From assembly GCA_951406725.2 (NCBI GenBank), contig OX597817.1, forward strand, positions 24,242,001-24,306,000: a DNA stretch of 64,000 bases. The letters run 5' to 3'. The notes beneath the pieces are model-generated. The model ran no database searches, was not told where the DNA came from, and was given only the letters and a program-made list of their open reading frames with translations. This stretch comes from Octopus vulgaris (taxonomy: Eukaryota). Numbering within the stretch: position 1 is the stretch's first letter; each line of letters starts with the position of its first letter. Both the position numbers and the translations under genes were made by a program. Shown one piece after another: positions 9,342 to 63,931 of the stretch.

Positions 9342-9800
9342 TCATCATCATCGTTTAACGTCCGTTTTCCACGCTAGCACGGGTTGGACGGTTCGACCAG
9401 GGTCTGGGAAGCCAGGGGCTGCACCAGGCTCCAGTCTGATCTGGCAGAGTTTCTACAGCTAGATGCCCTTCCTAACACCAACCACTCCGTGAGTGTAGTG
9501 GGTGCTTTTTACGTGCCACCGGCAAAGGTGCCAGGGGGACCCGGCATCGGCCACGATCAGTTGGAGCTTTTAACGTGCCACCGGCACAGAAGCCAGCCAA
9601 GGCGGCGCTGGCAACGGCCACGTTCGGATGGTGCTTTTTATATGCCACCGGCACGGAAGCCAGCCAAGGCGGCGCTGGCAACGGCCACGTTCGGATGGTG
9701 CTTTTTATATGCCACCGGCACAGAAGCCAGTCGGGGCGGAGCTGGCATCGGCCACGTTCGGATGGTGCTTTTTATGTGCCACTGGCACAGGTATCACAAC
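9342..9800 (-). mobile_element. RTE LINE 3' tail with ~5 tandem 62-69-bp units
   Basis: Reverse complement of the RTE tail; GTGCCACCGGCA recurs at ~9513, 9574, 9643, 9710 and 9776. Confidence 0.85.
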
Positions 9801-10397
9801 TACTATTTCCATTGATATTTATTTTGATGTTCATGTTCTTGACTCAACAGGTCTCCTCAAGCACAGCGGGACGTTCTGGGATCCAGGGTACTTTGAATGG
9901 GCAATTACGAATAGATTACCTATAGTACATATATTTATCTAATCTAATCTTTGACAGTGGTAATGCTGGATATGTTTCAGTATTTTTTAATCTCATTAAT
10001 AAAGTATAATCGTTAGCAGTGCTTATCAAATCTAATGACTGATTATCACTATATTAATATAGAGGAATTGCCATGACAATTTTGCATAATAAATGAAATC
10101 TGTTTATGAACCCTATTTTGGCCTGCATCCATGCAATAAATATATATATCTAGAGAATATTACAAACAAAAACAGAAGCTAAAAATGACAAAAGCATGAC
10201 AAGACTACAAATCCAAATTATTATGCTGCAGAAGCAAGAAAGAAAAGTCACTATTTCCTGCAATTGTCTTTATCAAGACAATAGAAAAAGGCAATGTGCA
10301 TTTTTCAAGACATAGAAAAATGCAATGTGCTGTTATCAGAGAAGAAGCATGTGACCAAATATATTCCATTCCATTTCATATACATACATATATATAT

Positions 10398-16625: not shown

Positions 16626-19600
16626 GAAAAAGACAATGATAAATGGGAGAAATAAAAAAGACCCTTGAAAGACTTTCAATCAATCAAACTCTGCACAACT
16701 ATTAAAAGTAAAAGAAATAGAAAATATCGATCATACTCTGTATAATATTAATGGTAATCTCAATTGTAAGTGACTCATGAGCTTTTAATGCTCACTTTCT
16801 CTCACATCTTTTCTACAACGTTTCTTTTTTTAAAAAAAAAGAAAAGTAAAGTCGATCGTTTATATAGTTCCTAAATGTTTTAGATGACCATGTAGTTTTA
16901 TCCAAAGTTGCGGTGCATTGATAAGCTCCAGTTTAGAACGAAATAAATTTTAATTTCTCTGCATCTACTTACAAAAAAAAATGGAAAACAAATAAGAATG
17001 AATTATATAGAAGTATAATAAAATAAATATACGAAAAAAAACTCTCCCCACCTTTTATGTCTTAGTAAATCCTTTTTTTCTCTCTGCCCCTTAAACTAAA
17101 AATAACTGTAAATGGCAACAGAGGTGGTCCACAGTCAAATTTCACGTGTGTGTATAGATATATATACATATATATATATTTATTATTTATTTATTATTTA
17201 TGTATAGAGTGTTTGAAGTGGTGTACAGATATTGTATATTGAGAAAAAAGGAGGCAGTCAGAAATTTTGATAATTCTGTATTAGTGTTTCCATTCATTTT
17301 TTTTAACTCGTCAAATCAAAATCAACATGATGAAAACAGAATGTTTCATTGTTCATTTATAAGAGCCAAATGCTTTTTTGCTTTGCTAGGGAGAGGAGAA
17401 TATTATTTTTGTTGTTTTTGAAAAACGGATGAGAGTGAGAGAGAAAGAAAACCAAAGGGGGGGGGATAGACAGAGAGAGAGATAGGTTTCTTTTCAATTT
17501 GATGTGGTCAATTCATTGAAATTTCATTACAAAGCATTTTTCTTTTCCCTTTATCTTTTCTTCCTTTTTTTCTTTTCCTTATATAACTATCAGCATATTT
17601 GAAAATGAACATATTTTCTCACAAGGGCTAGTGAAAGTGGGATGGGAAAATAGGAAAAAGAGGGCAGGGTACAGTCATCACTGAAATATAAATAAGTCCT
17701 ATAAAAATGTATATTCCTTTACACTTGTATAGTGAAGTCCCATATTCTGTGTAATTCCATGTTTTGCATGAAAAAACATTAAATATTAGTACAATATTCA
17801 TAAATAAGGAAAATAAAGTCAGAATATAAGAAATAATCGGGTCCTGTTTATTATTCAATCTATTCTCTATCAACATTTAATCAAACGTCATAAATTAGTT
17901 TTGCATATATATTGTATATTTAGCTGGAGGTCACTCTGTAGGATATAAATTATATAATAAAGCAGGGCCTGCTTAAATATATATTTTTTTGAGTATCTTT
18001 CATCCTTTTGTAGGATTTCTTTTTGTTTTCCTTGCTTGCTTGGATAGGATAATTTAAAAGAAATCTTTTTATGAATTACTTTGCCAAATAGTTGTGACTG
18101 GGGTTATTTATTTTTATGTGAATATCCAGGAAAAGTAATTCATTGCAACTGGATTCTGTCATGCATTTGATGGATGAGTGAAGTATGTTGAGTATATTAT
18201 TAAATATTTGTAGGTCTTCATTTGATTTGTCCCAAAAGATGAAGTAGACATCGAGGAAGTGTTTCTACATTTTAATGATGTATTTCTTGTAATTCTGATT
18301 AGAAACCTTCTCTACTTCCTCAAAAACCTTTTCTTCCAAATATCCCATGGCTAGATTAGTATTTGAGGGTGCAAACTGTGTCTCCATAGCTATACCCTTT
18401 AACTGTCAATATGTTTTATTATTGAAACTAGAGGTATTTTCTTCTAATACCAGAAGTGATGAACTCAGTTTTGAAGCTTTCATTTATCTGTATTCTATGT
18501 TTCTCTATCCAGCGTTTAACTGCTTCCAGATCCAAAGTATGAGGTATATTCATATAAAGATTGAAGACATCAAATCTTGTAAGTATAGTACCTTCTGGAA
18601 CAGTGGGTGGAATGGGCTGGAGGAAATCTATGCTGTCCTCTATACAGCTGGGTATTAATAGGTAGAAAGGTTTTAGGAGTATGTCCAAAAAATGACAGCT
18701 GTTGTGTTGGTGTTTGAGGTCCTGCAAATATTGGTCTCAGTTTGAGGTCAGTAAATCTTAGTATCTTTATGTATCGGTTCCTCTGTTCATTTATAGTTCT
18801 CTGTATTTCAGGGTTTTTGTGGATTTGAGGTAATCTGTAGGAATTGCTCTCTTTGATTACAGATTTGCATAAATAATCTTTCTCCTTGTCTGTGAAGAAA
18901 TCTTCATATTCATTAATTAGTGTTTTGATATTATTCATTATTGCTTTTCCTGGGTGTCTTGGTTCTTCCTTGTAGTAAGTTTGGTCTGTTAGAACTGCCA
19001 ATATCTTATCTTTATAGTCTTCTTTGTCCATGATTACTATTGCCCCTCCCTTAGCGGCTTCTTTTAGGGGATGATTGAATTGTCATTCTTCAGTGTTAAT
19101 AAGGCTTCCTTTTTTTTTCTTCATGAAGGTTTTCTTTTTGCTTTTACAAGTACTTGGGGAAAATTTCGAAATTGTGTCTATATATGCATCTAAATGTTTG
19201 TCCTTTCCCTTGTAGTGGGTGAAGTGGGATTTATTTCTGACAATTGATTTATCATTTATATCCTCATTGCTGAAGAATTCTATGAGCCAAAGGTGGCAGT
19301 TAAAATGCTCAATATCAGCTTTTAGTTTAATGGGATTAGCGGTGGGTGTCAGGGTAAAACCGAAACCTTTTAATTGGAGTTTCATCTCATTCTTTTTGAG
19401 GTTTCTATTTGACAAATTTAATGATCTTTGGGTTTATATGTTCTGTGTGCTCATTAAAATTTCCAGTTGCATTGGATCTGGTGCACAATTGTGATATGTT
19501 CTCCCTAAAAAAGGATTGTATTGTTGTTTCCATTTCTTGTTGTTTCTGGGGTTTTGATTCCCCCATAGATTGTTCATATTCTTTGTACATATTTTGTTGT

Positions 19601-20524
19601 CTATAGGTTCTGTCTTCTTCACATCTATGTTTATTGGGCCTTTCAGGATGCATCGGATCGTTGGTTATAAATCGTGGATTTCTTGAGTTTCCATGATGAT
19701 TCTTCATATTATAGTTTCTGTGTTGTCCGTATTTTATTCGTCTTTCTTTCCATGCATTCATCCATCTAGGGTACTTGGCATTATGGTTTGACAATTGTAT
19801 GTATGTTACTTGTCTTTCCTGTCTTTTCCCCCATGTATTCGTCCATCTATTGTATTTGATATTATGGGCTGATGGTTGACTTCTATATTCCATGTATTTG
19901 TTTATTGCAGTGTTGTTTTGGTATTGCAGAATATGTTCTTGGGTAACTAAAGGTTAAGTACCTTGGTCTGGTTCTTCTAGATTTGGTGTCTATGTTTGTT
20001 TTTTTATTTCCTTGTATTTTTTTGTTGTTGTGGTTTCGTTTTCATAATGGATTTTTCTCCATAGATTTTTTTTTCATAGCTAGTGAATCACTCTTTTTGT
20101 TTTCCCACATTTTTATGGATTCTTCTTCTTTCTGCTCTGTCTTCTTTCCGTAGTTGTTGTAATTTTTCGTGACTTTGATTGTCACTTCATTCAGCGATTT
20201 CATCAAACATAAATGCATCAATTGTTTTGAATTTCTCTTCATGTCATATTTTTTGCGATTGGAGAAGAGAAATTTTTGCTTCTAGTCAGCATGAAGCTAA
20301 GATTGCCCATACTGTCGTTTCTTCCAGTGATTCGCCTCTTATTTCTTTAAGAAGAAATTTTTGGGGAAGAATTGGGTTTTCTTTGCTTCACTAATTTTGG
20401 TAGGTGTTGGCTACAATGGAACGAAAAAAGAAAGAAAAGAGAAAGAAAAACAGAAAATATGCTTCATAACGAAATTTCAATGAATTGACCACAATCACAT
20501 CAAATTGAAAAGAAACCTCTCTCT

Positions 20525-20562
<38 letters not shown>

Positions 20563-20788
20563 ATTAATCAATATAGGGTGGCAAAAAAATTTTGTAGAAT
20601 TCTTTTGCCACCAGCGGCCTAGTAGGAAAAAAATTAAATAGTCATAAACCATTTTTACGTTCAACATCACAATCAAGGAGCGGCCATAATAGGCCATTCA
20701 CCCACTAGAAATAACAGCCAAAAGCTTTAACCGCAAAATAACATTAATACCGTAAACCAGGAGAAAATTGAAAAACTTTTACCCTGTA

Positions 20789-20895
20789 ATTTCTTAGACG
20801 ATGCACCGTTTCATCTACCGTTTAATGGTAAACTAACCTGATTAAATTAAATCAAGCCAATCCACCATAGGCCCTTAGACTCATAAGTAAGAAAT
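20789..20895 (-). ncRNA. Second copy of the same hammerhead with a mutated core (CUUAUGA)
   Basis: Matches 21485-21591 except for the G5>U change at position 20885. Confidence 0.75.
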
Positions 20896-21484
20896 AGCCA
20901 AATCGGAACAGATATTTTTCACGAGGCATACCTCTTGCTACCTCGGCAATATCTGACCTAAAATTTTCAAATCGTCGCACTCGCGCCAAATTTATCGGCA
21001 GCAAATAAATATAAGCCACCGATTCATTTACGGAACTAACCAGAAAATTCATAATTAATCAATATAGGGTGGCAAAAAAATTTTGTAGAATTCTTTTGCC
21101 ACCAGCGGCCTAGTAGGAAAAAATTAAATAGTCATAAACCATTTTTACGTTCAACATCACAATCAAGGAACGGCCATAATAGGCCATTCACCCACTAGAA
21201 ATAACAGCCAAAAGCTTTAACCGCAAAATAACATTAATACCGTAAACCAGGAGAAAATTGAAAAACTTTTACCGCTGGTGGCAAAAGAATTCTACAAAAT
21301 TTTTTTGCCACCCTATATTGATTAATTATGAATTTTCTGGTTAGTTCCGTAAATGAATCGGTGGCTTATATTTATTTGCTGCCGATAAATTTGGCGCGAG
21401 TGCGACGATTTGAAAATTTTAGGTCAGATATTGCCGAGGTAGCAAGAGGAATGCCTCGTGAAAAATATCTGTTCCGATTTGGCT

Positions 21485-21591
21485 ATTTCTTACTGATGAG
21501 TCTAAGGGCCTATGGTGGATTGGCTTGATTTAATTTAATCAGGTTAGTTTACCATTAAACGGTAGATGAAACGGTGCATCGTCTAAGAAAT
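21485..21591 (+). ncRNA. Type I hammerhead ribozyme with an extended stem II
   Basis: AUUUCUUA-CUGAUGA-GUCUA..[long hairpin]..UAGAU-GAAA-CGGU GC AUCG-UC^UAAGAAAU: 8-bp stem I, full core, GUC site (cut after 21583). Confidence 0.88.
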
Positions 21592-22124
21592 TACAGGGTA
21601 AAAGTTTTTCAATTTTCTCCTGGTTTACGGTATTAATGTTATTTTGCGGTTAAAGCTTTTGGCTGTTATTTCTAGTGGGTGAATGGCCTATTATGGCCGT
21701 TCCTTGATTGTGATATATATATATATATATATATATCCTCTCTCCATCCTTTATGAAATTTTCTCCTCTTTCTTGATTGTCCTGAAACCTCTCTCTTTGT
21801 CTATTCCCCTTTGCTTTTCTTTCTCTTTCCCCCTCTTTTTCTAAAAAAGCAAAAACAATATTCTCCTCTTTTAAACAAAGCAAAAAAAGCCACCGCTTCA
21901 CATAAATGAACAACAAAACGTTCTGTTTTTACCATTTTTGGTTTTGATTTTGTGTTGCTGAGTTCAAAAAACAAATGAAAATGCTAATAAAAAATTATCC
22001 AAAATTCTGACTGCCTCCTTTTTTCAACACACATACACACATATATATGCATACATATATATGCATACATGTATATATATACATATATATATGTATGCAT
22101 GTATGTATGTATGTATATTATGTC

Positions 22125-51080: not shown

Positions 51081-52310
51081 GTAGTGGCACACTTGAAGCC
51101 TTACAAAAAATTGCAGGCACACTACACAGAAAATGCTAAGAAATATAATGCAAAATGTAAAGAAATACAGAAATAACTGAAAAAAGGGTATATACCTTTA
51201 TTTTGCTCTGATGAGAAGTATGAACCTGGCATGTCTTGACAATGTCTTCAATGTTGAGACGTATGTATGATAAGCAAACACTCATTTCCTTGTCAATAGA
51301 CTGAAGATTTGTTCACTTTTTGCACTTGATGTTGGGGAGAGTGGAAAATCCTTATTCACATAAATGGGATGTTGAACATTTTTGGATATTGACTGGTATT
51401 CTTCTCTGATTGGAATCCAAAATTTTTCAAGACTAGATTCCTTATATTTAATCTTCAGTCCACCATTGGTGGATATAGCTGCTGCTTCTTCAGTTAATGT
51501 TAAACTAGCAACATCTGAAATTTTTATGAATGGATTTTGAATCCAAGCATATTGTTCAGTGTTAAATGATGGAAAATAATAATTTAATTTATTTTCCAAA
51601 TTTGTCAAATGTTCAAGTATTAAAAAGAAGATATCATTTATGCAAGTTCTACTTATCAAAGGAAACATTTCCAGATTACCCTCAGAAGCTCTTTTCTTCC
51701 AGATAAGTAGTTTTTTCTGAAATACTTTCATTTTATCAGTAGATGTCAAAACATTTTCTTTATTACCTTGCATGCTAGTATTCAAAATATATCAGCCAAA
51801 TACACTAATCTGCTAATCCAAAATTTACATCGAAGGAGCTCACAAAAGTAGTTTTGTTTCATTTCTTAAAAAAAATTCAGTAGCTCTTGTTGTAGCTTAT
51901 ACACACAATTAAGTACTTTCCCCTTTGAAAGCCACTGTGTGCAAAAGCAGGATTTTGTGTTGTAAATCTATATCAATGCAAAACTGTTCAAATAAACGTG
52001 ACTTTACTGGTCTTGTTTTTATATAATTTACAATCTCAACAGCTTGATTCCAAACTTCTCTTAATTTGTCTCCTAATGTTTTTGCCATCAATGCTTCTCT
52101 ATGAAGAAAGCAGTGAGTTATGATGACATTTTCATTTTGATGTTTTACAAAAGATGTAAGATCCTTAACACAGCCTACCATTGATGGAGCTCTATGTGTA
52201 CAAATACCGACATACAACTTCCATGATATTTGCCATTTGCACTGGTAAATATTCAAAATATTGGAAACATCTTTGCCTTTTATGATCGCATTAAATTCTT
52301 ACCAACTTAA
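51081..52310 (-). mobile_element. Decayed hAT (Charlie/Buster) transposase
   Basis: VGICTHRAPSMVG, THCFLHREAL, RLFEQFC, LLLHT..WLSKG and NTSMQG are Buster/ZBED8-type motifs, now frameshifted. Confidence 0.88.
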
Positions 52311-60489: not shown

Positions 60490-61342
60490 TTAAGAGTATC
60501 AAAATACTGTCTTATCCAATGAGTCCTTTTGTTAACACAGCAGGATATTTTTGGAGACAGAGTTTAGGCTATTATTAAGAGGTGATCAAGTTAGGAGTTG
60601 TGTATGTCAGAAAGACTGACAGAATGAAAAATAGAGAGATAAATAGGTAAGAAAAACTGATAGAATTAAATGAAAGAAAATAAAAGGTGGTAAAGAGGGT
60701 GTAAGAAAAAGGAGTTAGTGAGAGAGAAAGAGAGAAAGAATATTAAGAAGTGAAAGAAAAGACTGATGTGAATGTATAAGTAAGTCGGTGAGAATGAATG
60801 AATGAATGAAGGTGAGATTGAAGAAAATAAAGATAACTGTGAGAATAAATTTTGGTGACTTTGAGAAGTGAAGAGACGAGAGAAAAGAGTGGAAAAAGAG
60901 AAAAATCAGGGAAAGATCAAGAAAAATGAGTAAAAGGGGGAACAGCAAGAAAGAAAGTAAAAAGAGAAAGCTTTAAACGAAAGTTAAATAGATGTCTTGT
61001 GGAAATGTCGAACCTGGGTTCTCATTCCTTAGGTATTTTTCGATGTTATTATCATTATTATTTTTTCCTTCTTTCTTCAAATTCTCTTCCATTTCTTGCC
61101 AAGTGTTTTCCGTACACCTAGGGCAGTGAAACACATTGCATGCATTCCCAGATTACACACGCAAATTCACAGGTAAAATATGTATTAAAAAAATTAATAA
61201 ATAAATAAATTCATGAATGGATGTTGTATCCACAGCGATAATGCTCTTCTCAGTACATGAGCTATTCCAGTTAACATGATTGTTTTGCACTTCCTGTGGG
61301 GATGGTAAGCCTGGTATCATTTTCTATTATTATTATTATTCA

Positions 61343-63256
61343 CTAGTAAGGTGAGGGTTGGCAATGAGTACAGTGAAGAATTCCGGGTAGAGGTAGGGGT
61401 CCACCAAGGCTCAGTCCTCAGCCCTCTCCTATTTATCATAGTCCTCCAGGCAATAACGGAGGAATTCAAGACAGGATGCCCCTGGGAGCTCCTCTATGCT
61501 GATGACCTTGCTCTAATTGCTGAGTCATTATCAGAACTGGAGAAGAAGTTCCAGGTGTGGAAGCATGGTTTAGAATCGAAGGGCCTTAGAGTCAACCTAG
61601 CTAAAACCAAAGTCGTAATAAGTAGAAAGGTAGACAAATCACAAACGCCTTCAGGTAGATGGCCCTGCTCGATCTGTAGAAAAGGTGTAGGTAGAAACTC
61701 TATAAGATGCACCAAATGTAAGCTATGGACACATAAGAGGTGCAGCAATGTCATAGGAAGGCTAACTAGGAAGATGGCTTTTGTATGTGGCAGATGCTCG
61801 GGAGCATTAACCTCTGAAAATCTGCAGAAAACAACTTCCGTCACTTTCCAGGGGGAAAAACTAGAAGTAGTTGATAGCTTCCGTTATCTTGGTGACCAAG
61901 TCAGTAGTGGGGGTGGGTGTGCTGAATGTGTAACGGCTAGAGTAAGAATAGCCTGGGCAAAGTTTAGGGAGCTCTTACCTCTGTTGGTGACTAAAGGCCT
62001 CTCGCTCAGAGTAAAAGGCAGACTGTATGATGCATGTGTACGAACAGCCATGCTACATGGCAGTGAAACATGGGCCGTGACTGCTGAGGACATGCGTAAG
62101 CTCACGAGAAATGAAGCTAGTATGCTCCGTTGGATGTGTAATGTCAGTGTTCATAGTCGACAGAGTGTAAGTACCTTGAGAGAAAAGTTGGACCTAAGAG
62201 GCATCAGATGCTGTGTGCAAGAGAGACGATTGCGCTGGTATGGTCATGTGGCGAGAATGGATGAAGATAGGTGTGTGAAAAAGTGCCACACCCTGGCAGT
62301 TGAGGGGACCTGTGGAAGAGGTAGACCCAGGAAAACCTGGGTCGAGGTGGTGAAGCACGACCTTCGAACTCTAGGTCTCACCAAGGAAATGACCAGAGAC
62401 CGAGACCTATGGAAGTATGCTGTGCGTGAGAAGACCCGGCAAGACCAGTGAGAACAATCAAAATCAAATCGTATATCAGAAAGCAGGGGTTAAGTGACCC
62501 ATCCGTTCGTGTCTGCTGTCAGTCTCATCTGGCACCCATGCCGGGCCGTTTGCCAGCTCTGCCTGGCCCCCGTGTCGGTGGCACGTAAAAGCACCATCCG
62601 TTCATGTTCGTTGCCAGCCTCGCCTGGCCCCGTGCCGGTGACACGTAAAAGCACCGTCCGTTCATGGCCGTTTGCCAGCTCTGACTGGCCCCATGTCGGT
62701 GGCATGTAAAAGCACCATCCGTTCGTGTCCGTTGCCAGCCTCGGCTGGCCCCCGTGCCGGTGACACGTAAAAGCACCGTCCGTTCATGGCCGTTTGCCAG
62801 CTCTGTTTGGCAACCGTGTTGGTGGCACGTAAAAGCACCATCCGTTCGCGTCCGTTGCCAGCCTCGGCTGGCCCCCGTGCCGGTGACACGTAAAAGCACC
62901 GTCCGTTTCGTGGCCATTTTCCAGCTCTGTCTGGCACCGTGTCGGTGGCACGTAAAAGCACCATCCGTTCATGTTCGTTGTCAGCCTCGGCTGGCCCCCG
63001 TGCCGGTGACACGTAAAAGCACCGTCCGTTCGTGGCCGTTCGCCAGCTCTGTCTGGCACCTGTGCAGGTGGCACGTAAAAAAAAAACACCCACTACACTC
63101 GCGGAGTGGTTGGCGTTAGGAAGGGCATCCAGCTGTAGAAACACTGCCAGATCTGACTGGGCCTGACGAAGCCTTCCAGCCTCACAGACCCCAGTTGACC
63201 CGTCCAACCCATGCTAGCATGGAAAGCGGACGTTAAATGATGATGATGATGATGAT
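61343..63256 (+). mobile_element. Young 5'-truncated RTE-clade LINE
   Basis: Uninterrupted RT C-terminal half, tandemly repeated 3'UTR and a (GAT)n tail. Confidence 0.92.
61351..62451 (+). CDS. Reverse transcriptase, C-terminal half (RTE clade), with an internal PHD-type finger
   Basis: GVHQGSVLSPLLF, LLYADDLAL, GLRVNLAKTK, FRYLG, RRLRWYGHV and RGRPRKTW motifs; there is no true start because the element is truncated. Confidence 0.92.
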   Translation: MRVGNEYSEEFRVEVGVHQGSVLSPLLFIIVLQAITEEFKTGCPWELLYADDLALIAESLSELEKKFQVWKHGLESKGLRVNLAKTKVVISRKVDKSQTPSGRWPCSICRKGVGRNSIRCTKCKLWTHKRCSNVIGRLTRKMAFVCGRCSGALTSENLQKTTSVTFQGEKLEVVDSFRYLGDQVSSGGGCAECVTARVRIAWAKFRELLPLLVTKGLSLRVKGRLYDACVRTAMLHGSETWAVTAEDMRKLTRNEASMLRWMCNVSVHSRQSVSTLREKLDLRGIRCCVQERRLRWYGHVARMDEDRCVKKCHTLAVEGTCGRGRPRKTWVEVVKHDLRTLGLTKEMTRDRDLWKYAVREKTRQDQ

Positions 63257-63331: not shown

Positions 63332-63860
63332 GTTATTCATATAGTGAGGTTATTTACAGCATAAAAGTGGTTCTGTTGCACATTGGGAACACATGCCTTC
63401 TGTTCCAATTGCTCACTCAGTCATTTTAAGAGAGACATATGTGAACCTCACTTTTATTCTAAACTGCATAAGTTACAAGGAGCATGAGTGGCTAATTTGT
63501 GGACTTGAAAGTAGTCGCCCTACTTAATGGGCTACAAACTGGATATATCAAGTCTATGTGCTTCCTTTGCAAGTAGGACAACAGGGCCAGATCAGAACAT
63601 TATGTATGCTCAGAATGGCCAACTCAAGAAACTATGACACCTGGATGCCTTAATGTAAATCATGAGCCTCTAGTTAAGGAGAAAATCATTTTTCCACCAC
63701 TGCACATAAAACTAGGCCTAATGAAGCAATTTACCAAAACACTGCAACATAACAAGCCATGTTTCCAGTACCTCAAGGCGATCTTCCCTAAAATAAGTGA
63801 TGCCAAGATCAGAAAGGGGATATTTGTAGGCCCTCAGATTCATCAACTTATAGCTGATGA
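63332..63860 (+). pseudogene. Chapaev3-like transposase internal fragment
   Basis: KVVLLHIGN, EHEWLICG.LKVVALLMGLQTGYIKSMCFLC and IIFPPLHIKLGLMKQFTK..FPKISDAKIRKGIFVGPQI, with frameshifts and stops. Confidence 0.8.
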
Positions 63861-63931
63861 GGACATATGGTGTAGTGGTTAAGAGCATGGGCTTCTAACC
63901 CCAAGATTCTGAGTTCGATTCCAGGCAGTGG

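Follow-up and report, generated by a model that had tools for sequence, protein, structure and literature searches.

The window analysed here, a 64,000-nt stretch of the Octopus vulgaris genome, contains a non-coding insertion built of two arms of one repeated unit. Throughout, an arm denotes a stretch of the unit that keeps a single orientation, the ribozyme strand is the strand that reads CUGAUGA...GAAAC, and c1 is the first base after the predicted ribozyme cut. The left arm (20560..21273, minus strand) is 714 nt or 1.45 monomers long, and the right arm (21272..21714, plus strand) is 443 nt or 0.90 monomer long. The arms meet head-to-head, their 5′ ends overlapping by 2 nt at 21272..21273; the left arm begins at c14, 13 nt short of the predicted cut, and the right arm at c179-180. 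A TA tract lies on either side, the left one at 20547..20561, preceded by a (TC)n run, and the right one at 21713..21736. Each arm adjoins its (TA)n tract with a different position of the unit. The left arm finishes at site A, the “long” 3′ end (c~236; 20560..20577, minus strand), a putative start of reverse transcription with internal copies at 21051-21068 (minus) and 21312-21329 (plus). The right arm finishes at site B, the “short” 3′ end (c~131; 21702..21714, plus strand), a putative second start 105 nt from site A, with internal copies at 20666-20678 and 21156-21168 (both minus). The 105-nt “tail” between the two sites (20562..20665, minus strand) includes a GGUGGC/GCCACC hairpin at 20577-20612.

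In the alignment, a full copy of the unit occupies 20561-21051 and is followed by unit positions 1-223 again at 21052-21273 (99% identity), while the inverted part (21272-21714) runs from unit position 57 to 1 and then from 491 to 106 at 99-100% identity. An earlier note on this DNA had described the layout as X-Y-Z-X-Y followed by inverted X′-Z′-Y′; the alignment bears out this order, except that the last Y′ is partial. The 491-nt monomer of that note is indeed the period of the first copy, but it includes one extra base in a T run, and the unit of the family measures 490 nt. The hairpin halves that it listed lie where it had placed them or close by, for example AUCGGUGGC at 21357-21365 and GCUGCCGAU at 21378-21386. 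The copies within the insertion differ from one another at three or four positions, and they contain no open reading frame of 100 amino acids.

Directly left of the insertion's TA tract is a decayed Penelope-like element (PLE; 18091-19525 and 19991-20378, minus strand) with ~70% DNA identity to F1, one of the intact PLE families described below. Its reverse transcriptase (RT) motifs are split over several frames, and Pfam searches of its fragments returned nothing useful. We considered this fossil as the parent of the unit and set the idea aside, as such pairing is rare (8 of 118 loci) and TA is targeted by both. Elsewhere in the window, a frame of 380 codons (61309-62451, plus strand), in which an internal cysteine cluster accompanies RT-like motifs (YADD), is presumably a fragment of an RTE-type LINE, and two decayed frames at 51282-52298 (minus) and 63577-63882 (plus) are what we take to be fragments of DNA-transposon transposases (hAT-like and other). 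GC-richer tandem repeats with a ~57-nt unit (TTTTACGTGCCACCGGCACG-like) lie inside dispersed repeats at 9378-9942 and 62525-63213.

The right arm carries an intact type I hammerhead motif (21486..21590, plus strand). Stem I pairs 21486-21492 with 21584-21590; the core CUGAUGA (21493-21499) leads into stem II, which pairs 21500-21504 with 21563-21567 and encloses a 58-nt hairpin insertion; GAAA (21568-21571) and stem III (21571-21574 with 21579-21582) complete the motif. The cut is predicted after C21583, between 21583 and 21584, which is the site that the earlier note had correctly named, and self-cleavage there would follow from the established hammerhead consensus. A second copy in the left arm (20790..20894, minus strand) has the core CUUAUGA, the result of a G5-to-U change at 20885 that was overlooked in the earlier note and occurs in that single monomer only; this copy is predicted to be inactive. 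At gathering and E-value thresholds, Rfam reported no hammerhead and only sub-threshold hairpin matches, probably because stem II holds the 58-nt insertion. Other ribozyme classes were sought through Rfam only, and a search of the antisense strand of three arms for CUGANGA found no match.

Folded as a circle, the ribozyme strand of the monomer reached −138 kcal/mol (z −4.5) and the other strand −86.5 kcal/mol (z −2.7). The strand bias in folding that had been proposed is thus strong, but the other strand also has structure. Forcing the ribozyme to form cost ~18-22 kcal/mol in all 13 monomers folded, so that the stable circle is predicted to mask the ribozyme.

To examine the constraint on the ribozyme we compared 375 parsed monomers. 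Inherited changes within the hammerhead were found at N7 (U, A, C, G), at N17, in the stem III loop and in stem II, whereas changes in conserved core bases or in stems I and III were confined to single monomers. N17 is C or A across the family, giving the cut triplets GUC or GUA, both of which are permissive under established hammerhead rules. The inherited changes in stem II were G.U to A-U and A-U to G-C, which keep the pairing, and haplotype L079 was the sole one with an A.A mismatch at the outer stem II pair. When the pairs were those predicted for a single monomer, 10 of 102 inherited variants broke a pair on the ribozyme strand, compared with 50 of 135 singletons (p 1e-6); the corresponding values for the opposite strand were 15 of 102 and 34 of 135 (p 0.05). 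Covariation in the consensus fold was modest, with 20 further pair types that arose nearly all via G.U and a two-sided change in 1 pair among 150, in a structure derived from the same alignment. These results show that the type I hammerhead is under selection, since inherited changes occupy free positions or keep stem II paired. Selection on the structure and a strand-biased fold are therefore both found in this family.

The unit is not confined to the window. In the assembly searched (2.8 Gb, 227 contigs), a monomer search gave 826 first-look candidates; scoring 40 of these gave 192 matches, and the full-length ones among the matches listed were 96-100% identical to the unit. Exact patterns, whose counts are lower bounds, detected at least 2,512 ribozyme 3′ halves genome-wide, and ends directly against TA repeats numbered at least 968 for site A and at least 482 for site B, the site B pattern missing the second subfamily described below. 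Reversed control patterns had no match genome-wide, so that the motif and end counts are not due to chance. The locus in the window is one of roughly a thousand recent insertions of the 490-base unit, in agreement with the recent insertion that the earlier note had read from the near-identity of the copies; the unit is multi-copy in the genome, not single-copy. Representative monomers are 483-498 nt long with a GC content of 35-37%, an arm holds up to 9.4 units, and the longest stop-free frame in three multi-unit arms is at most 78 codons. A second subfamily is ~10% diverged, and most of its listed copies are 98-100% identical to one another, which shows that it is itself young.

We also looked for the unit outside this assembly. 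The exact ribozyme pattern had no match in metagenome contigs or in viral contigs. Contigs from sequencing runs under three other organism labels cover the unit, and two of them span the head-to-tail junction. In one run (X17, organism label C), the contig depth summed over the unit was ~1e5 in 1,288 contigs; depth is not copy number, and this value may reflect a much larger expansion in a related organism. The assembled contigs of four sequencing runs gave a fragmentary cover of the unit, with some pieces extending into TA flanks, and are uninformative on expression or on a circle.

To determine how the arms are arranged, we mapped 119 insertions in three samples: 40 insertions chosen by similarity to the unit of the window (sample 1), 41 insertions in 40 chromosome-1 stretches chosen for an A or B end without a listed partner (sample 2), and 38 insertions of the second subfamily (sample 3). 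Samples 1 and 3 were picked by BLAST score and favour young, long arrays, and sample 2 was picked for possession of an A or B end. After leaving out one insertion at a contig end (L002) and one apparent duplicate (L212, of L211), 117 remained. Two arms were present in 89 of these, and all 89 were head-to-head. An A end was paired with a B end in 82 of the 89; no A+A and no B+B pair was found, and the remaining 7 have one end elsewhere or unreadable (the latter in L030). The same rule was obtained separately in the second subfamily (32/34) and among the ends that had been picked as apparently unpaired. The outer ends were narrowly placed, at c231-243 for site A (mostly 233-238) and at c126-136 for site B (mostly 131-132), giving the A-to-B spacing of 105 nt. 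By score, 28 insertions were single-armed, and several of them retain 8-20 nt of the opposite end as a stub (L040, L101, L107, L206, L207). An apparent A+A pair on C1 (L087) was resolved as two separate A+B insertions. TATATA was present within 15 nt of both ends in 103 of the 117 insertions, and target duplications of 14-15 bp could be read in three (L042, L067, L088), such duplications being unreadable in pure TA tracts.

The earlier note had proposed a single cDNA with a template switch. As the general route, this is contradicted by the lengths of the arms: in 32 of 82 insertions the B arm exceeds the A arm in length, and the lengths are compatible with fold-back in only 13 of 82. The two different fixed outer ends, together with these two counts, indicate two priming events. 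We nevertheless weighed a fold-back or template switch after one priming, in which the second arm copies the first cDNA and site B is the point of resolution. The 13 insertions that fit by length agree with it, as do the 14 of 83 in which both 5′ ends lie within 10 nt of each other and the mirror-shared variants seen in L058 and L064; in addition, the accessible text of PMC3846280 proposes self-priming from junction palindromes for the head-to-head repeats of PLEs. However, a B arm longer than its partner is impossible for a copy of the first arm, most junctions (which are mostly blunt or have an overlap of 1-7 nt) join unrelated unit coordinates, and several of the 13 are merely two arms that both stopped near the cut. 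Fold-back is refuted as the general route and very unlikely to be the explanation of this family, though it may account for a minority of insertions.

The arrangement of the ends is also that of PLEs in the same genome. Among the PLE candidates that we scored (150 of 6,136 GIY-YIG and 150 of 4,265 RT matches) are three intact families, F1, F2 and F3, with frames of 775, 775 and 781 codons and mutual identities of 45-55%. F1 and F2 have RT and GIY-YIG domains by Pfam, and F3 was recovered through the GIY-YIG search; all three contain a CX4CXXC linker, of the type described for Neptune and Nematis. They target TA tracts, and one long and one short end were found in 10 of the 10 two-armed insertions with both ends readable. 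Their tails are ~30-45 nt long, compared with 105 nt in the unit. No homology between F1-F3 and the unit was detected by blastn, no conserved hammerhead was detected in F1-F3 by a loose pattern, and folding of their tails revealed no obvious structure in common. Site A and the long end of F2 resemble each other in a short CACCC(T)ATAT stretch, which was set aside as too weak.

Several further features of these PLEs were observed. In three young intact families, an ORF1 lies upstream of the RT frame and overlaps it (L120:3858-6185, L131:3824-6151, L143:3126-5471), and a run of CCA-UUUUUU(A/U) is conserved at the overlap and resembles a −1 frameshift site; a frameshift-separated ORF1 has already been noted for PLEs in the accessible part of PMC8557442. 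In one case (L133:1589-1944), a small A+B insertion of the unit abuts the end of a 5′-truncated F2 element across a short TA tract, and the pair is probably one insertion into the TA flank of the other.

Further results bear on whether the unit belongs to such an element, as the pseudo-LTR (pLTR) of an autonomous hammerhead-bearing PLE whose truncated insertions would be the arrays. Homology to pLTRs was reported in 24 out of 57 retrozyme families from Xenopus that were matched to known transposable elements, nearly all of them PLEs (bioRxiv 10.64898/2026.07.22.740005), and the candidates that we scored are only a fraction of the GIY-YIG and RT matches; both leave room for this explanation. 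On the other hand, the arms lap the 490-nt unit up to nine times and never run into an ORF. A PLE-like coding match was present near the unit at 8 of 118 loci, always outside the insertion, and inside the insertions at none of the 118; all 40 loci taken for an A or B end contain the retrozyme only. None of the 118 loci is a terminal repeat of a PLE ORF, the case that the earlier note had set against its own reading. A present-day pLTR is thus highly improbable, while the unit may have an ancestral origin from one.

The unit is very probably a non-LTR retrozyme mobilised by PLEs. The first part of this description, already suggested in the earlier note, agrees with one type I hammerhead per unit, tandem monomers of 483-498 nt, a GC content of 35-37%, under the 45-50% limit of such elements, the lack of coding capacity and the 14-15-bp duplications, beyond the 4 bp that target duplications of this class exceed. 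The second part, which that note had also put forward, agrees with the head-to-head arms (89/89), the A+B pairing (82/89), the TA target (103/117) and the same rule in F1-F3 (10/10). A PLE-type enzyme is strongly implied as the mobiliser by these sequence patterns, and F1-F3 are candidates.

To investigate where copying stops, we compared the 5′ ends of 199 arms with the positions expected from exposure. Between −1 and +30 of the predicted cut there were 46 ends compared with 13.8 expected (p 4e-13), and between −1 and +2 there were 7 compared with 1.6 expected, while the 30 nt beyond had 4 ends compared with 12.2 expected. The pile-up was seen in each subfamily sample (35/130, and 13/70 in the second subfamily), and in one insertion (L045) both arms start exactly at c1. 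The stop rate at the cut was ~10% per lap, with no difference between the first lap and later ones (p 0.75). From the sharp edge, there seems to be a physical end of the RNA at the cut, trimmed later at the join, and the pile-up may be taken as an indirect sign of ribozyme cutting in the germline. In RNA-seq of Poseidon, ribozyme-cut ends were not detected (PMC11167929).

The arms also record how many templates were used. More than one monomer was copied in 129 of the 199 arms, the longest being 4,608 nt (up to nine monomers), which supports the earlier claim that reverse transcription went on beyond a full round; the cut site was crossed without a gap in 404 of 406 passages. Discordance at 48 diagnostic columns was 0.6% within arms and 0.8% between the arms of an insertion, compared with 24% (24.3%) between insertions. 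In young insertions, the arms matched in 24 of 24 cases, compared with 172 of 676 cross pairs (25%). The variant spectrum was two-peaked, with 388 variants fixed in an insertion, 216 single and 24 partial; the second subfamily had 28 fixed, 127 single and 19 partial. Partial sharing inside one insertion involved 42 columns. Sixteen variants private to one sampled insertion were fixed in first and later laps, and we report this number (which includes three from L094) rather than the raw 21+8, because in L090 four of the supposedly private variants are those of the second subfamily, and six from L094 may be due to sparse sampling. Private variants were restricted to later laps in 2 cases, both at palindromic junctions, and to first laps in none. 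Within single arms of L070 (2572-5958) and L093 (1496-4968), variants alternate with a period of two units, which could be due to a dimer circle or to a later tandem duplication.

This periodic sharing is also what a satellite would show if it were amplified and homogenised at the DNA level, by unequal crossover or gene conversion, and carried the ribozyme as a relic, and local tandem amplification is favoured in bioRxiv 10.64898/2026.07.22.740005. The insertions are dispersed, however, with fixed ends on TA tracts, target duplications and 5′ ends piled at the cut, and the variant spectrum has two peaks; we regard a satellite as the least credible of the explanations weighed.

A covalent monomer circle would most simply account for the clonality and the gap-free laps, and we consider it probable that one RNA circle is copied by a PLE enzyme that primes from both (TA)n target ends. 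Clonality alone does not require a ribozyme-made circle, because hammerhead-free PLEs also give clonal tandem and two-armed copies: across full 4,271-nt tandem units and inverted arms of F2 (L128, L130, L131, L132), 15 variants were shared and 8 unshared. PLE enzymes may thus have a repeat-making route of their own. This is one of the points in favour of a linear template, where the same retrozyme would be inserted by the same two-start PLE reaction from an incompletely cleaved RNA, one to two or more units long, its 5′ end at the ribozyme cut, with the polymerase jumping back onto the repeat and failing about once in ten. A linear template gives a direct account of stops at the cut on every lap, unprocessed RNA was the dominant substrate in vitro (PMC11167929), and partial sharing patterns do occur within insertions. 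Yet it predicts variants found in later laps only or in first laps only, of which we saw 2 and 0 compared with 16 fixed in both, a test that is weak if the parent arrays are themselves young and clonal. From a plain monomer, moreover, the jump at the end would have no homology to use, and 404 of 406 passages are gap-free. We consider the linear template unlikely.

The preferred reading, a circle primed from both target ends, can be set out in six steps. A tandem copy would be transcribed, and the hammerhead, which is present as a motif and under selection, would release the 490-nt monomer. Ligation would then close the monomer into a circle, in which the ribozyme is predicted to be hidden by the most stable fold. 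Next, a PLE protein, probably a dimer, would nick the two strands of a TA tract ~14-15 bp apart, a step based on the observed target and the three 14-15-bp duplications. One DNA end would prime the RNA at site A and the other would prime the same RNA at site B, in keeping with the pairing of the ends. Each polymerase would lap the circle by strand displacement with a stop at the ribozyme site in ~10% of laps, presumably when the circle is re-cleaved there. Finally, the two cDNA ends would be joined, mostly bluntly or via an overlap of a few bases, as at the junctions that we mapped.

A more specific form of this model can be offered only tentatively. In it, one enzyme dimer would hold one RNA circle and give each of the two cut ends a start of its own, A or B, and the polymerases would chase each other until the hammerhead reopens the circle. 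The unit would mimic structurally the start-site geometry of hammerhead-free two-ORF PLEs, with hairpins shrinking the 105 nt to ~40, without shared sequence, and the clonal tandem and inverted copies of the PLEs themselves would likewise come from circular RNA.

Priming by both target ends on an RNA is known from L1 twin priming, which gives an inverted head-to-head product and a target duplication. There the second start varies and the arms are not known to overlap, whereas in the unit both starts are fixed and both arms are longer than a whole unit in 39 of 82 insertions. Hammerhead viroids and viroid-like satellite RNAs are small, highly paired circles in which the ribozyme is masked in the stable fold; in contrast to them, the unit is genome-encoded and has a ribozyme core on one polarity only.

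The closest known elements are the non-LTR retrozymes of metazoans. The accessible text of PMC7229834 defines these, demonstrates their circles for three animals and names PLEs as the probable agent of mobilisation; the elements described there from coral, mussel and axolotl resemble the unit in being non-coding, low-GC tandem repeats with one type I hammerhead each, in their many dispersed copies, and in the proposal that circles are copied by PLE or LINE enzymes. The 490-nt monomer is larger than the 150-450 nt given in that text and lies inside the range of 51-972 nt of the vertebrate survey in bioRxiv 10.64898/2026.07.22.740005. The unit differs from known non-LTR retrozymes in the 58-nt stem II insertion, with which Rfam misses it, and in a ribozyme that is absent from the best predicted fold (a penalty of ~20 kcal/mol), whereas the ribozyme is free in most metazoan circles according to the same portion of PMC7229834. 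The bioRxiv study reports co-occurrence of retrozymes with PLEs and kinship with pLTRs, leaving the mechanism to be worked out; between the unit and F1-F3 no such kinship was detected. Inverted arms, fixed paired ends, clonality per insertion and stops at the cut site are not described in the accessible parts of either source.

Among EN+ PLEs (PMC8557442 and PMC3846280, both in their accessible parts, and Poseidon, PMC11167929), the likeness lies in the inverted, 5′-truncated copy joined head-to-head, a tail confined to one end, targets of (TA)n or AT-rich sequence, partial tandems, and two internal starts independent of extended target homology. For Poseidon of Anolis, work in vitro placed the tail between two internal starts, found both strands cut and extended, and predicted a dimer (PMC11167929). 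The unit differs in having no protein, a tail of 105 nt instead of 30-40 nt, multi-lap arms and a footprint of ribozyme cutting in the genome. Non-autonomous PLEs of Chlamys such as MRC1 are, like the unit, multicopy, head-to-tail and PLE-mobilised, but as PMC8557442 describes them in its accessible part they generally resemble their helper at the 3′ end and belong to a clade without canonical hammerheads; compared with the helpers examined here, the unit is the opposite on both counts. The origin of the tandem and inverted repeats of PLEs and of their one-sided tail is stated as open in PMC11167929 and in the accessible part of PMC8557442, and that of PMC5680766 has nothing specific to add.

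Retrozymes and PLE tails are thus already known as kinds. This family stands apart through its tail of 105 nt, its long stem II, a ribozyme that is predicted to be masked and the lack of kinship to the helpers examined, together with a quantitative record of paired starts, clonality and cut-site stops that we did not find in print. A literature search, with Dfam, Repbase, subscription journals and supplements outside its scope, found neither this family nor a retrozyme with paired fixed ends described before; the family could be listed in the supplements of PMC7229834 or of the bioRxiv study.

The structure of these insertions provides mechanistic evidence on the copying of retrozyme circles by PLEs, a hypothesis raised in the accessible text of PMC7229834. 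To judge from the long stem II, standard searches for ribozymes may count too few of such elements. The family is also compact material for tests: its RNA is 490 nt long, both starts are mapped, the target is TA, and three intact enzymes are candidates. An RT that rolled round a small circle and inserted it from both ends at TA tracts would be of interest for retroelement-based insertion tools.
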